64,000 bases of DNA from Patescibacteria group bacterium (GTDB lineage: Bacteria > Patescibacteriota > Patescibacteriia > Patescibacteriales > UBA12465): assembly GCA_041649315.1 (NCBI GenBank), contig JBAZNJ010000001.1, positions 133,869 through 197,868 on the forward strand, read 5' to 3'. The notes below the pieces were generated by a model that did not search any database, had not been told where the DNA came from, and saw only the letters and a program-made list of their open reading frames with translations. The position numbers and the translations under genes were made by a program. Below are positions 5,087 through 55,180 of this stretch, piece by piece (positions within the stretch are counted from its first letter, which is position 1; each line of letters opens with the position of its first letter).

Positions 5087-5926
5087 TTATCTCTTGACTC
5101 CCGTTTGATTCTTGATTTTGACCTTAAAGCCCCATTTCATAAAATACTTCAGCCAGGAAGCGATATGCTGCCAAGCGAGATGGCTTAAAAATACCGCGAA
5201 ATACCAAGGATGATCAGCGCTCTGCCGTTTATGATCATGAATAACGACCGCATCCGGATTATAAACTACCGAAAAACCTTTAGCCCAGACCTGCCGGCAG
5301 AGATCAATATCTTCAAAATACATAAAATAACGCTCATCAAACAGGGGCTCGAATAAGTCGCCGGTCGATTGCATCAAACGTCGCCGGAACAACAAGCATG
5401 AACCCATAAGCCAATCAACCTCTCTAATCGAATTATGGTCAAAATCATTCATGGTAAAGCGATCGCGAATATTTTTAAAATAATCTCCTAAAAAGGTCCG
5501 CCGCAGAAAAGGCATCAGAAAGACCGGCCAACGGGCGCAAGAGGCCTGCAAAGACCCATCTGGATAAATTAATTTCGGACCGACAATTCCGACCGCCGGA
5601 TTATTTTTCAAATAATTTAATAGGGTATTAATCGCTCTGTCTTTTATTACCGTGTCCGGATTAAGGATTAAAATAAATTCGCCCCGGGAATTCTTGATAC
5701 CTAAATTATTCCCGCCACCCATGCCTGAATTTTTTGCGCTCTTTATCGGGCGTAAATTCGGATAACGCACCGGCAAATCCTCTAAATCATCGCCGGAATC
5801 ATTATCAACGACAATGATTTCATAATTTAAAAAACTAAGCCCGGCGCCGATAATGGACTCCAAACAATTTAACAGTTTAGCGCGGCTCTTATAGTTAACG
5901 ATGATAATTGATAATTCCATAGACAA
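5087..5926 (-). CDS. Family 2 glycosyltransferase (GT-A fold)
   Basis: 279-aa ORF. LSIIIVNYKS, VVDNDSGD, ILNPDT and FEDIDLC motifs. The first in-frame start is TTG at 5926; an ATG lies two codons in. Confidence 0.85.
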   Translation of the reverse strand: MSMELSIIIVNYKSRAKLLNCLESIIGAGLSFLNYEIIVVDNDSGDDLEDLPVRYPNLRPIKSAKNSGMGGGNNLGIKNSRGEFILILNPDTVIKDRAINTLLNYLKNNPAVGIVGPKLIYPDGSLQASCARWPVFLMPFLRRTFLGDYFKNIRDRFTMNDFDHNSIREVDWLMGSCLLFRRRLMQSTGDLFEPLFDERYFMYFEDIDLCRQVWAKGFSVVYNPDAVVIHDHKRQSADHPWYFAVFLSHLAWQHIASWLKYFMKWGFKVKIKNQTGVKR

Positions 5927-5927
5927 T

Positions 5928-6133
5928 AATCAAACAAATAAAGGCAGCTAGGCCGTTCGTCGGCAACACTCCTTCGCTTCGGTAATTTCTGTGGTAAAAT
6001 TTACCGCCTCTTCTCCGGCCACCCCCGCCAGCCGGCGGAGGCGACCGGCCGGCGATAAATTTTACTCTACGAAATTACAGGCGCTCAGGAGCATTGCCGC
6101 CCGAACGGCTTTAATTATAAATCAAACAAATAA
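5928..6133. mobile_element. MITE-like GC-rich palindromic insertion flanked by a perfect 14-bp direct repeat
   Basis: AATCAAACAAATAA occurs at 5928-5941 and 6120-6133. Between them, 5951-6110 is one long imperfect inverted repeat: left arm GCCGTTCGTCGGCAACACTCC...GGTAATTTCTGTGGTAAAATTTACCGCC, right arm GGCGATAAATTTTACTCTACGAAATTAC...GGAGCATTGCCGCCCGAACGGC. Clearly GC-richer than its flanks. Confidence 0.5.
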
Positions 6134-7189
6134 CCTTACTAAACGCCAATATATATTCATCAAGGGGTTGGCGATATACTTTAATATCGGATTGGAAATT
6201 TCCTGGAACATAATCCGTCCCTCAAAATCACGGGCAATTTCTTCAAACGGCACCGTACTAAAACTCTTTAGCCGCGCCCGCTCCTTAGCAATCATATCAT
6301 AAGTCCGGCGTTTAAAAAAATAACTATAAATCTTAATTTCTTCCTTAAACCAGCCGCCTAAAAGCGCATAAAATAACATTCCTAAATCTAAAAAAAAGAG
6401 CGGTAAAAAAATCCAAGCCAGAAAACGATAAGGGTAAAAAATAAGCAGAGTCAGATAGCGATTCCGTTCCATGTAATAAATCATCTTAGTACTGCGTTTG
6501 AATTCATATTTATGATAAACGACCGCCCGCGGCGCCAAAATAATCTTATAACCGGCTAATTTCACTTTTAAACTCAACTCTGAATCATCATGATACATGT
6601 AAAATTCTTCATTATAACCGCCAACTTGCTCAAAAACTTCTCGGCGGATAATAAAGGCACAACCGCTGGCATAACCCTTGATTTCCGGATAACCGAAAAT
6701 TTCTTTATCCGGCGCGCCATAATCGGACGTAAAACCAAAGCCGAGATAATGAATAATATTACCTAAACTATTTATTTTTGGTCGGGATTTTCCTGTCTCA
6801 TCTTTCGGATATAAAAGAATTTTCGCCTGAGCGATTCCGGCGGACGGATTATTATCTAAAGCTTTTACTAATTCTTTTAACCATTGCGACGCCAATTCCG
6901 TGTCCATATTAAGCGTCACCAAATATTCACAGCCGTCTTTAATCACTTCTTTAAAACCAAGGTTATTAGCGGCGGCATAATTTCCGTCCGGCCGCGGCAA
7001 AACCGTCGCTTCCGGATAACTATTTTTTAAATAAGTAAGCGATTCCGGCGTCGAAGCGTTATCAATAATATAAATCCGTGTTTGCTCGACCGGATAATCC
7101 TGAGCGCGCAAAGAATCGCGGCAAGGCGCTAAAAAACGCTCAGCATAATCTTTATAATTAACTAAAATTATTCCGACTTTTTTTATCAT
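6122..7189 (-). CDS. Family 2 glycosyltransferase with C-terminal TM helices
   Basis: 355-aa ORF. VGIILVNYKDY, IIDNAST, TLNMDTE and YHDDSELSLK motifs. Hydrophobic segments FLAWIFLPLFFLDLGMLFYALLGGWF. Confidence 0.85.
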   Translation of the reverse strand: MIKKVGIILVNYKDYAERFLAPCRDSLRAQDYPVEQTRIYIIDNASTPESLTYLKNSYPEATVLPRPDGNYAAANNLGFKEVIKDGCEYLVTLNMDTELASQWLKELVKALDNNPSAGIAQAKILLYPKDETGKSRPKINSLGNIIHYLGFGFTSDYGAPDKEIFGYPEIKGYASGCAFIIRREVFEQVGGYNEEFYMYHDDSELSLKVKLAGYKIILAPRAVVYHKYEFKRSTKMIYYMERNRYLTLLIFYPYRFLAWIFLPLFFLDLGMLFYALLGGWFKEEIKIYSYFFKRRTYDMIAKERARLKSFSTVPFEEIARDFEGRIMFQEISNPILKYIANPLMNIYWRLVRLFV

Positions 7190-27739: not shown

Positions 27740-27917
27740 GAGTTAAAATCTGGACATAAAAAACAAAATTAGAATCTACGATAGCGCTTGCGCCGCGAAA
27801 TCAAACTGCACGTTCAGCATAAAACCAGGCCGCGTGCTTGAAATAAATCGCTTGCGTAAAATAAAAAACCGCATATAAATACGCGGCTTCTATATTTTAC
27901 AGGCCTTATTTGACTTA

Positions 27918-28487
27918 TTATTTTTTCCGGGTGAACACAATATAGCTACCCTTAGGAACCCCGTCCTCAAAGCAAGCGATATTGCTTACCCATTTACCGT
28001 ACATATTTTTACTAACGAACACAACTTGGCGGCAACCATAATTACTCAACCAAAGGTTTTTTTCATAATCAAGCCCAAAGATAAATGATTCATCTTCCGG
28101 CTCAACATTCCCTTCTAGTTGTGCCCAAATTATAAATAGTCGGTGCGCATTCGGCATTGATCCCTTTTGTTTAGAGATAAACTCTAAACACTGTTCGCTT
28201 CTCAAGTCGCATTTTAAGCGATAAATAAAAGCATGCTCCCGCCCGGTATAAAGCGGCGCACTCGGATCGAAAGCTCCTTTTAATATATCCCGATTAAAGT
28301 ACAGAAAAACATCTCCTGTATCTTTATAAAATTTCTCTAAGGAAAAATTAGCCGGGATTTCTATTGGCCAGCGCAAGATTGGCTCAAAGCAGTCCTGTAG
28401 TTTTACCTTCTTCGCCTTTTTTGGCGATACAGCGGTCAGCCCGAAAGCAACGACCGACAACAATAATATCAATAATATTTTTTTCAT
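27918..28487 (-). CDS. Secreted protein, unknown function
   Basis: 189-aa ORF with signal-peptide-like MKKILLILLLSVVAFGLTAVSP and 6 Cys in the mature part. AT-rich context. Confidence 0.6.
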   Translation of the reverse strand: MKKILLILLLSVVAFGLTAVSPKKAKKVKLQDCFEPILRWPIEIPANFSLEKFYKDTGDVFLYFNRDILKGAFDPSAPLYTGREHAFIYRLKCDLRSEQCLEFISKQKGSMPNAHRLFIIWAQLEGNVEPEDESFIFGLDYEKNLWLSNYGCRQVVFVSKNMYGKWVSNIACFEDGVPKGSYIVFTRKK

Positions 28488-53527: not shown

Positions 53528-53590
53528 CTAAACCCATGAATATTAATTTCAAATTTCTAAACCCATGAATATTAATTTCAAATTTCTAAA
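53528..53590. repeat. 29-bp perfect tandem repeat (2 copies plus a 5-nt third start) in the grpE-hsp20 spacer
   Basis: CTAAACCCATGAATATTAATTTCAAATTT at 53528-53556 and 53557-53585, then CTAAA. Confidence 0.9.
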
Positions 53591-53763
53591 TCCTAATTTC
53601 CAATCAAATCCAAATTTTTAAATTAAAATGTCAAAATTAGAAATTGTGATTTTGTTATTGATTGGAAATTGGAAATTTGACATTAGAAATTTTAAAAATA
53701 ATCTTTTAATCTTTATTTTTTTAATTTTAAATTTTAAATTTTAAATCTTTAATGTTTAATTTT

Positions 53764-54384
53764 TCAATCTTTCACAATCACTTTCGCCGGCCTAATTACT
53801 TTTCCGTTCAACTTATAGCCCGGCATAATCTCCTGCTTAATTTTTTCACCGGTTCCATCTATCGCTTCCATCAAATCATGATCAAATTTTTCGCCCTCGG
53901 TTTTAATTTCTTCAATGCCGCGCGTTGCCAAAACTTCCTTAAATTGTTTTAAAACATGTTTCACCCCTTCAACCCAGGCGCTCTGGCTTTCTTCTTCGCT
54001 TAAACCTTTAAGCGATAACTTTAAATGATCATAAACCGGCAAGATATCATGTAAAAAATCTTCCACCGCGTATTTAACAAATTCTTCTTTTTCCTTAGCG
54101 CTCTGTTTGACTAAATTTTGGTAATCGGCCAAGGCGCGGAGGTATTTTTGATTATCGCTTTCCACATCTTCTTCTCGCAAAAATTCAAATCTCGGCTTCT
54201 TTTCCCCCTTCAACTCGACTTCTCCTAAAAACATTTTTTTAGGTCGAACCCAAATTTTATTTTCATTATTAACATCACGATATATTATTAATTGTTCTTT
54301 ATTTTCCGAATGAGTAGCTTCACTCAAAAAAATATATTCTCCTCCTTTATAATGGCGGTAAATTCCTTTTTTTAATTCACTCAT
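53764..54384 (-). CDS. grpE: GrpE nucleotide-exchange factor with an N-terminal DUF1653-like domain
   Basis: ATG at 54384, 1 nt after the hrcA stop. N-terminal GIYRHYKGGEYIFLSEATHSENKEQLIIYRD...IWVRPKKMF is DUF1653-like. C-terminal LRALADYQNL...FDHDLMEAI...PGYKLNGKVIRPAKVIV is GrpE. Confidence 0.85.
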   Translation of the reverse strand: MSELKKGIYRHYKGGEYIFLSEATHSENKEQLIIYRDVNNENKIWVRPKKMFLGEVELKGEKKPRFEFLREEDVESDNQKYLRALADYQNLVKQSAKEKEEFVKYAVEDFLHDILPVYDHLKLSLKGLSEEESQSAWVEGVKHVLKQFKEVLATRGIEEIKTEGEKFDHDLMEAIDGTGEKIKQEIMPGYKLNGKVIRPAKVIVKD

Positions 54385-54385
54385 A

Positions 54386-55075
54386 TTATTCAAACTTATT
54401 CTTAATAAATTCCACTAGCGCTAAATTGCGCCCATAATCCATGCGCATCGGCCCTAAAATCCCGAAAACGCCGTCTTGATTATTATTCTTGTACTTGACT
54501 AAAACCGTGCTTAAAAAATTTCCAAAAGGATTCTTAGATCCAATCAAAACCTGCGCGCCGTCTTTTAATTCTTCGAAGGTATCATCAATAATTTCTTCCA
54601 AACGGTCAATAACCGCGGACACGTCGCTAATCGCGTCAACCCGGGCAAATTCCGGCTGAGCGAAAAGATTGGCGAGGCCGGTATAATATAGATCATTTTT
54701 ATGAAAAGCCCAAAATACCGCGCCGCCAGCCAATTCCGCGATTACCTTGGCTGTCCGTTTATAAGCGGCTTCTTCCGCAGCAAACAAGCCCTCTAATAAT
54801 TTAAATTCGCTATCTTTTAAATTTTTCTTCTTTATTTCCGATAAATTTTCTAAAAACAATTCGTAAGCGGCTTCGGTCGGCACGCGGCCGGCCGAAGTAT
54901 GCGGCTGGTAGATATAGCCTTCTTCCTCAAGCTCCATCATTTCATTCCGCACAGTCGCCGGAGAGACCTCCAGCTTATATTTCTCTACTAATCCACCCGA
55001 AGAAACCGGCGTCGCGGTTTTTATGTATTCGCAAATAATTGTTTCTAAAAGGAATTTTTTACGATCGGAAATCAT
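54386..55075 (-). CDS. hrcA: Heat-inducible transcription repressor HrcA (compact, 229 aa)
   Basis: N-terminal wHTH RKKFLLETIICEYIKTATPVSSGGLVEKY...SPATVRNEMMELEEEGYIYQPHTSAGRVPT and C-terminal GILGPMRMDYGRNLALVEFI. Confidence 0.85.
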   Translation of the reverse strand: MISDRKKFLLETIICEYIKTATPVSSGGLVEKYKLEVSPATVRNEMMELEEEGYIYQPHTSAGRVPTEAAYELFLENLSEIKKKNLKDSEFKLLEGLFAAEEAAYKRTAKVIAELAGGAVFWAFHKNDLYYTGLANLFAQPEFARVDAISDVSAVIDRLEEIIDDTFEELKDGAQVLIGSKNPFGNFLSTVLVKYKNNNQDGVFGILGPMRMDYGRNLALVEFIKNKFE

Positions 55076-55140: not shown

Positions 55141-55169
55141 ATTATAAACAAACTTAGCACTCCCGTCAA
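55141..55169 (-). promoter_or_regulatory. hrcA-grpE promoter TTGACG-17-TATAAT overlapping CIRCE
   Basis: Minus strand has TTGACG (55169-55164, inside the CIRCE spacer), 17 nt, then TATAAT (55146-55141). Confidence 0.65.
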
Positions 55170-55180
55170 GAGAGTGCTAA
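55154..55180. promoter_or_regulatory. CIRCE operator upstream of hrcA
   Basis: Perfect TTAGCACTC-N9-GAGTGCTAA. Confidence 0.92.

Follow-up and report, generated by a model that had tools for sequence, protein, structure and literature searches.

A recently inserted palindromic element between two glycosyltransferase genes of a Patescibacteria bacterium, probably a copy of a dispersed, non-autonomous repeat family

Enterobacterial repetitive intergenic consensus (ERIC) sequences of ~127 bp are imperfect palindromes that lie in transcribed intergenic regions in either orientation, are strongly conserved across species while differing in location, and also occur as longer variants with insertions; in Yersinia, ERIC insertions duplicate TA. 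Correia/NEMIS elements of Neisseria, RUP, and other miniature inverted-repeat transposable elements (MITEs) are small non-autonomous inverted-repeat insertions that are co-transcribed and fold in the mRNA, where those of the Correia type are substrates of RNase III. The terminal inverted repeats of MITEs match those of a parent insertion sequence (IS), and MITEs generate duplications of 2-10 bp, while casposons are large elements with casposase and polymerase genes between terminal inverted repeats. Systems based on REP-associated tyrosine transposases (RAYTs; REP, repetitive extragenic palindrome) have a cognate Y1 HUH gene in the genome, usually flanked by REPs, and single-strand transposition of the IS200/IS605 HUH type creates no target duplication. 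REPINs, in turn, are hairpin-forming REP doublets of Pseudomonas and enterobacteria that RAYTs mobilise. They have two invariant inverted arms and a less conserved spacer, in which the hairpin is kept by compensatory changes; they are extragenic and show long vertical persistence (PMC3116915). REPs are tagged by the tetranucleotide GTAG (PMC3733652). Integration by casposases generates 15-bp duplications overlapping the 3' end of a gene, and mini-casposons have been integrated in vitro (PMC5137440). Here, we present an analysis of a 178-bp segment with a long imperfect hairpin that lies between two family 2 glycosyltransferase (GT2) genes in a 64-kb stretch of DNA (the window; GC content 0.42) from the metagenome-assembled genome of a Patescibacteria group bacterium.

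Our analyses support that this segment probably belongs to a family of palindromic repeats that is dispersed in Patescibacteria, is non-autonomous, and has a REPIN/ERIC-like architecture. In an initial annotation of the window, the segment had been read as an insertion with a target duplication, being either a mobile or palindromic element that is non-autonomous or a structured RNA gained by the operon, and the empty sites and further copies described below bear this out. The family is uncatalogued; in the literature, we found neither a description of this hairpin family nor any dispersed palindromic repeat or MITE family described in Patescibacteria. What is added here is the empty site, the second copy, and a deeply conserved family with three unusual features, namely an invariant internal core, variable stems, and a 14-bp duplication. 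Patescibacteria (candidate phyla radiation) have tiny, tightly packed genomes, and the locus provides a filled/empty pair by which an insertion can be dated.

The insertion and its empty site

The three GT2 genes around the hairpin are all on the minus strand, and the segment between two of them is bounded by a direct repeat (Table 1). This 14-mer, AATCAAACAAATAA, has only these two exact copies in the 64 kb (shuffled controls gave a mean of 0.19 matches with one mismatch allowed), and the identity between the copies ends at 14 bp on either side. On the minus strand, the upstream GT2 gene ends with ...TTA TTT GTT TGA (L F V stop) inside one copy, and the other copy lies just before the downstream GT2 gene, of which ATG 5920 is most likely the start; the spacer between the genes is 201 nt in the window. 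Precise removal of the insert would abut TTATTTGTTTGATT and ATTGTCTATG on the minus strand, and removal of 192 bp leaves TGA, 9 nt, and ATG.

Empty sites were found in three contigs of close relatives from other metagenomes (L035, L036, and L037), in which the GT2 is 92% identical. At the junction, all three have one homologue of the 14-mer, an 8-nt gene spacer, and no hairpin; it reads ...TTATTTTTTTAATCC CATTT ATG, with the codons AAG TTA TTT TTT TAA TCCCATTT ATG GAA. This spacer agrees with the 9 nt predicted from removal of the 192 bp. The relatives are collinear on both flanks. In the comparison with L035, collinearity extends over ~11.6 kb, the two flanks having nucleotide identities of 93.4% and 86.5%, and the sole break is at window 5922-6120, which corresponds to 6 nt in L035. 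The repeats in the window are identical to each other and both differ from the single copy of the relatives at 3 of 14 positions, arguing that the duplication is younger than the split from these relatives. Because the relatives have a single 14-mer homologue and no hairpin at this site, the comparison of the assembled contigs shows that the 178-bp segment was indeed inserted recently in the source lineage and that 14 bp of target were duplicated in the process. Both GT2 genes remained intact after the insertion. The perfect duplication, the position of its copies relative to the two genes, and the tight junction restored by removal had all been claimed in the initial annotation, and each of these claims held.

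The junction was also compared in more distant genomes, a check that the initial annotation had proposed. Among 31 species-representative genomes with a homologous GT2, 26 have the same second GT2 next to it (37-70% identity in those 26), with a spacer of 1-112 nt that does not exceed 27 nt in 22 cases; the hairpin is missing from all 31. Separately, the site downstream of the GT2 homologue appears tolerant of insertions: L005 has a ~55-nt spacer with a small hairpin, and L012, L014, and L028 have AT-rich short tandem repeats at this position, the next gene in L014 not being the second GT2.

The inserted hairpin is one long imperfect palindrome, the ends of which differ by at most 1 nt each from the interval 5951-6110 that had been marked beforehand, and each of its feet is exactly 10 nt from the nearest direct repeat. 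Its GC content is 0.59, compared with 0.40 in the flanking 2 kb, in line with the enrichment noted initially. Comparison of folding energy with shuffled controls, which had been proposed as a check, gave -104.8 kcal/mol for RNA of the minus strand (z -9.3; 0 of 200 shuffles) and -83.0 kcal/mol for the plus strand (z -7.2); as single-stranded DNA (ssDNA), the minus strand also folds better (-55.3 vs -46.0 kcal/mol). In a sliding 180-nt scan of both strands, the hairpin is the top fold outlier of the whole window. On the minus strand, the stem has 7 G.U pairs and a single A.C juxtaposition. A terminator scan found no canonical terminator at the hairpin, and CUAGCUGCC separates the foot of the stem from any U run; likewise, we found no consensus promoter at the window copy, and neither arm matches elsewhere in the window by blastn.

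These data also bear on whether the hairpin could have arisen in place, as a terminator or attenuator or by a local inverted duplication, or could be an assembly artefact. An independent Logan assembly of the same run, SRR8542065 (L001), runs across the upstream junction, extends 32 nt into the hairpin, and ends at the nucleotide corresponding to window 6078, and such a break can occur at problematic repeats. However, the upstream junction recurs in this independent assembly, the relatives' empty site has no precursor palindrome, the stem is not followed by a U-tract, its arms are unmatched elsewhere in the window, and contigs of roughly nine organisms have homologous hairpins in unrelated places. 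We therefore regard an origin in place or by misassembly as extremely improbable. The break itself is within the 5' arm of the hairpin and would fit sequence common to other copies, or low coverage.

A family with a conserved core and variable stems

The initial annotation had called for a search for additional copies, and these were found both in the same genome and on contigs of other organisms, so that a single-copy element is ruled out. Translation of the open plus-strand frame of the hairpin gave a single protein match, P0121 (MFA4999934.1, WC545_01060; 43 aa), with 89% identity over 36 residues. Based on accession and locus-tag numbering, P0121 shares the 376-kb contig of the window copy and follows the upstream GT2 at a distance of 66 protein accessions; this places it past the end of the window, by a rough estimate ~70 kb from the first copy, and it is known as a translation only. 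Relative to the window copy, the implied nucleotide changes are one in the terminal loop, one that converts a G.U to an A-U pair, two near the start codon, and an indel that deletes a basal bulge. The "hypothetical protein" MFA4999934.1 is an annotation artefact, i.e., an antisense frame over the second hairpin copy. More generally, the GC-rich hairpins of the family break assemblies and yield spurious proteins of this kind. A HMMER search of the representatives returned P0121 and two unrelated tandem-repeat translations only.

Searching JGI metagenome contigs with an 18-mer shared by both copies gave 19 loci, of which 13 are homologous hairpins (12 distinct) and 6 are chance matches. A covariance model built from 12 copies added one more, L053:953-1051. 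Altogether, 13 further copies are on contigs of roughly eight other organisms, at least two of which are Patescibacteria metagenome-assembled genomes (MAGs). One 809-kb MAG has three copies and a half-remnant abutting one of them. This half-element (L053 4686-4712) consists of CTTCGCTTCGATGATTTCTGGGG followed by an A run and lies in the opposite orientation, flush against a full copy, which suggests a nested insertion or a rearrangement between copies. Sampling with an exact 18-mer inflates the apparent invariance of one arm and misses variants such as L053:953-1051.

All copies share two arms, which on the window minus strand read GAGCGCCUGUAAUUUCGUAGAG and CCACAGAAAUUACCGAAGCGA (22 + 21 nt). 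Their pairing is imperfect, comprising an 8-bp helix (GUAAUUUC/GAAAUUAC), conserved G.A/A.G, G.A, C.A, and U.C juxtapositions, and bulged As. By contrast with the arms, the basal stem of 13-25 bp and the apical stem-loop are locus-variable in sequence, while their pairing is kept. Thus, the arms are fixed, while the inter-arm spacing and the surrounding stems vary. In the alignment, 91.5% of cells form standard pairs, compared with 38-53% in slid controls; changes on both sides of a pair were present in 21 of 40 pairs (69 cells), a level reached in 0 of 500 shuffles, and RNAalifold independently gives the same helix. The family has two forms. The long form, with a GC-rich apical extension, includes the window copy, P0121, and L065; the last of these has ligA and gatC as neighbours and originates from the sample that also gave the empty-site relative L035. 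The short form, to which the remaining ten copies examined belong, is AT-rich, measures ~100 nt across the modelled core, and has an apical stem-loop of 25-34 nt. Two orthologous pairs retain the element. In one of them (L054/L066), the core is identical at 43 of 44 positions and the adjacent tRNA-Thr at 100%, whereas the flanking coding sequences (CDS) are ~70% identical, and changes in the basal stem are compensated. Judged from these alignments, the core is shown to be under strong constraint and the stems to be maintained by compensation.

Searches elsewhere were negative. We found no second copy inside the window with blastn, a repeat finder, or the covariance model with filters off; the weak matches at 30-127 (18.1 bits) and 27839-27913 (16.5 bits) were taken as chance. 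The latter, on the minus strand, is a terminator-like hairpin right after the open reading frame (ORF) 27918-28487, with faintly core-like flanks (CCUGUAAAAUA ... UAUUUUACGCAAGCGA; E 0.06); its resemblance is probably due to chance, but it could alternatively be a decayed relative. The covariance model found no copy in 363 kb around GT2 homologues and none in 240 kb of viral loci, and it rejected every one of 32 loci on viral contigs that had been picked by 16- and 17-mer core patterns. There was no blastn match in plasmids or phages. The exact 22-mer and 21-mer patterns had no match in the genome_contigs, viral_contigs, and metagenome_contigs sets, from which the source contig was likewise not returned. 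In Rfam 15, there was no match around the element at E ≤10 and none at the gathering score over the window; for five copy-bearing loci (three of them short-form) searched at E ≤1, only a sub-threshold match to the generic hairpin MIR400 was obtained. We also weighed an identity as 6S RNA, SRP RNA, a T-box, a known ribozyme, or an attC-type site and dropped all of these, as the element is multi-copy, the defining motifs are absent, and cmscan was negative.

Table 1. Features of the GT2 locus and its inserted hairpin (window coordinates)
Feature	Positions	Strand	Description
Upstream GT2 glycosyltransferase	6122..7189	-	355 aa; Pfam PF00535, E 9.7e-16; MFA4999868.1; TGA at 6124-6122
Downstream GT2 glycosyltransferase	5090..5920	-	277 aa from ATG 5920; MFA4999867.1
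Direct repeat copy A	6120..6133		Minus strand TTATTTGTTTGATT; last three codons and stop of upstream GT2 plus 2 nt
Direct repeat copy B	5928..5941		7 nt upstream of the downstream GT2 start codon
Inserted segment, 178 bp	5942..6119	-	10 nt TATAATTAAA, 158-nt hairpin, and 10 nt CTAGCTGCCT; missing from the relatives' empty site
Long imperfect hairpin, 158 nt	5952..6109	-	73 pairs in the minimum free energy structure of the 195-nt spacer; 7 G.U on the minus strand
5' core arm	6065..6086	-	GAGCGCCTGTAATTTCGTAGAG; near-invariant in 12 aligned copies; part of this arm was the search pattern
3' core arm	5974..5994	-	CCACAGAAATTACCGAAGCGA; 18/21 positions invariant in 12 aligned copies; outside the metagenome search pattern
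Apical extension	5995..6064	-	GC ~0.65; A/U-rich stem, then GC-rich stem and GGCU loop; present in the long form
Spurious antisense ORF	5991..6302	+	Frame kept open by the GC-rich hairpin

Genomic placement and the possibility of a host-selected RNA

Copies lie 3-94 nt from flanking ORFs and, where tRNA genes flank them, 6-39 nt from these. Their contexts are ligA-gatC, epimerase-tpiA, ruvX-recO, aminoacyl-tRNA synthetase genes of the asnS/aspS type, exoIII-leuS, upstream of thrS, rseP-hpf, the hrcA leader, a TPR gene followed by tRNA-Thr, and tmRNA followed by tRNA-Leu. Relative to the flanking genes, the model strand (the minus strand in the window) is co-oriented in eight copies and anti-oriented in five. 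We also considered orientation relative to replication; however, GC skew on the model strand simply mirrors gene direction and is, therefore, uninformative in this respect. Many of the neighbours are translation genes, i.e., four aminoacyl-tRNA synthetase genes, tRNA-Thr, tRNA-Leu, tmRNA, gatC, and hpf (L053, L056, L061, L054/L066, L052, L065, and L060); this could be a real enrichment or a mere reflection of the gene content of reduced genomes.

One of these contexts has a counterpart in the window. Here, a CIRCE operator (TTAGCACTC-N9-GAGTGCTAA; 55150-55180, minus strand) overlaps a TTGACG/TATAAT promoter upstream of hrcA (54386-55075). L059 has the CIRCE/promoter counterpart at 605-632, with the hairpin element between promoter and hrcA, filling the 5' leader. 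We also considered that a palindrome already in place might serve as the insertion target. The window's hrcA leader, which can be taken as a distant "empty" site for the L059 copy, has no palindrome.

Another possibility is that the family is primarily a structured RNA whose invariant internal-loop core is selected by the host; it could act as a rod that binds protein or is catalytic, or in cis within an mRNA, and new copies would arise by occasional duplication. In that case, the GT operon would have gained a new signal for regulation or processing. Several observations fit this idea: conservation of the core matches that of the neighbouring tRNA-Thr at a flanking CDS identity of ~70%, 21 pairs are compensatory, and the core mismatches are purine-rich on the model strand (tandem G.A/A.G, G.A, and bulged As). 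Moreover, G.U pairs favour the model strand by 7:1 in the window hairpin and by 14:6 in the variable stems of the family, the model strand gives the better fold in 8 of 12 copies, including 3 of 4 anti-oriented ones, and it is the transcribed strand in the window. On the other hand, the G.U bias is not significant (p = 0.12), the five anti-oriented copies are antisense to both neighbours, spacers of 3-94 nt are tight for promoters of their own, the genomic context is unconserved, and Rfam has no match. TATAAT-like hexamers are often present just upstream of copies. At the window copy, neither a full promoter nor a terminator was found. On balance, we consider a primarily host-selected RNA unlikely, though it is the main rival reading.

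Comparison with known elements and candidate routes of spread

The family resembles REPINs in its inverted invariant arms, the compensated spacer hairpin, the extragenic sites, the persistence at orthologous sites, and the lack of coding capacity. It differs from them in having no sequence similarity, in that its arms are enclosed by a further, locus-variable basal stem and contain conserved mismatches, in the 14-bp duplication at the one datable insertion, in the absence of a RAYT in the window or beside the copies, and in copy number, which is few per genome in the sequence sampled compared with tens to hundreds. Of the tags that mark the end of each REP, GTAG or CGTC, the former is present in the 5' arm only (GTAATTTCGTAGAG), while the matching position of the other arm reads TGTG. 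These comparisons bear on whether the copies are REPIN-type units mobilised as ssDNA by a RAYT or IS200-like HUH tyrosine transposase that is encoded once per genome and recognises the folded arms. In favour of this route, the architecture agrees with published REPINs (PMC3116915), GTAG occurs within the 5' arm, and the minus strand is the better ssDNA fold. However, HUH single-strand transposition is not expected to leave a duplication, and the one here is a clean 14 bp; the GTAG is internal and on one arm only; we saw no Y1 transposase gene, either in the window or among the neighbours of the copies; copy numbers are far below those of typical REPIN populations; and orientation does not follow GC skew independently of gene direction. 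Mobilisation by such an enzyme is, consequently, quite unlikely.

As in the case of ERICs, the family has short (~100 nt) and long (158 nt) forms and a dispersed intergenic placement. It differs in occurring in another phylum, in that the stems vary and only the core is fixed, and in the 14-bp duplication instead of TA. Judged indirectly, from searches of Rfam, plasmids, and phages that gave no match, the sequence appears unrelated to ERIC. Similarly, the target duplication confirmed by an empty site and the presence of several copies per genome (P0121 in the source genome; three and a remnant in the 809-kb MAG) recall MITEs, but the ends of the insert are not inverted repeats, the duplication is unusually long, and no parent IS was found in the window or beside the copies. 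Given the apparent lack of a sequence relationship, the 14-bp duplication at the one datable insertion, which HUH single-strand transposition would not produce, and ends that are not the inverted repeats required of a MITE, the element does not belong to the REPINs or to the ERICs.

The likeness to casposons is limited to the length and position of the duplication (14 vs 15 bp, at the 3' end of a gene), while the window has no cas1 and the insert ends are not inverted repeats. Integration by an enzyme making ~14-nt staggered cuts, for which a DDE transposase generating long duplications (IS4, IS481, or IS1202-like) and a casposase of the Cas1 type with a miniature substrate are candidates, would account for a 14-bp duplication that overlaps the 3' end of a gene, for which the 15-bp duplications of casposases are a precedent (PMC5137440). 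Moreover, close relatives have a 425-aa transposase-like gene with an HTH_28/HTH_29 N-terminus (L044 108-1385, L045 747-2024, L046, and L048). However, the window contains neither cas1 nor a DDE gene, the ends of the relatives' locus are unlike the hairpin, the insert has no terminal inverted repeats, and the duplication is a single event, making this route very unlikely. The transposase-like gene of the relatives was also rejected as a mobiliser in general, because the ends of its locus show no relation to the hairpin and the gene sits where synteny breaks down. It lies upstream of a conserved 67-aa gene, beyond which L045 has 23S rRNA as judged by eye; in the window genome (L042), a membrane-protein gene is at that position, indicating a synteny break rather than a simple insertion.

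Returning to the dispersed repeat family that we favour, it is supported by the lack of a cognate enzyme gene in the 64-kb window and of a canonical promoter or terminator at the hairpin; genes for a transposase, recombinase, reverse transcriptase, Cas1, or HUH enzyme were also not seen next to any copy examined. Several observations weigh against it. In the window or beside the copies, we found no transposase with ends matching the element. For the source genome, the number of established copies is two, and there are few per sampled genome. Terminal inverted repeats are absent at the ends of the insert, where TATAATTAAA and CTAGCTGCCT are not complementary and the palindrome begins 10 nt inside. 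A flanking direct repeat was seen at the window copy and at none of the other copies examined, so that the 14-bp duplication rests on one event. Conservation of the core in situ at the level of a tRNA over long divergence is unexpected for a purely selfish repeat. Finally, two copies in the 809-kb MAG have an apical stem-loop identical at 25 of 26 positions and unrelated basal stems, arguing that simple copying of whole elements is insufficient.

This last pattern is accommodated by another reading, in which the family is a new class of mobile structured element with a 43-nt asymmetric internal-loop core that serves as an RNA or ssDNA motif for a Patescibacteria protein and that is integrated via 14-nt staggered cuts; on this view, the way in which copying works would explain why basal and apical stems seem to be exchanged as modules between copies. 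The combination of 14-nt staggered integration and such a core is undescribed for REPINs, ERICs, or MITEs. We regard this reading as unlikely. The tRNA-like conservation of the core points to a specific partner, either a transposase-like enzyme or an RNA-binding factor.

For the favoured dispersed repeat family, we propose the following sequence of events. The two GT2 genes would originally have been translationally coupled, and 14 bp of target were duplicated upon entry of the element into their 8-9-nt spacer. The element has no coding capacity beyond the spurious antisense ORF and is, therefore, non-autonomous; because it carries no gene, copying would depend on a factor encoded elsewhere. 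This factor probably recognises the invariant 22 + 21-nt arms when these are paired in the single-stranded fold. Because there is no room for signals of its own and the neighbouring genes are on the same strand, the element is likely co-transcribed within the GT operon. In the mRNA, it would form a ~158-nt rod of roughly -105 kcal/mol, with the two cistrons 201 nt apart compared with 8 nt in the relatives, and such a rod would be expected to alter the coupling, processing, or stability of the mRNA. Given its predicted stem of >70 bp, RNase III-type double-strand cleavage is plausible. By uncoupling two adjacent glycosyltransferase cistrons, the insertion may change cell-surface glycan synthesis in this lineage.

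Elsewhere in the window, the region between hsp20 and grpE (53574-53774) has a GC content of ~0.14; it contains an inverted repeat of 56 nt, the arms of which are 71% complementary, and direct repeats that overlap one another and recur every 14 nt.

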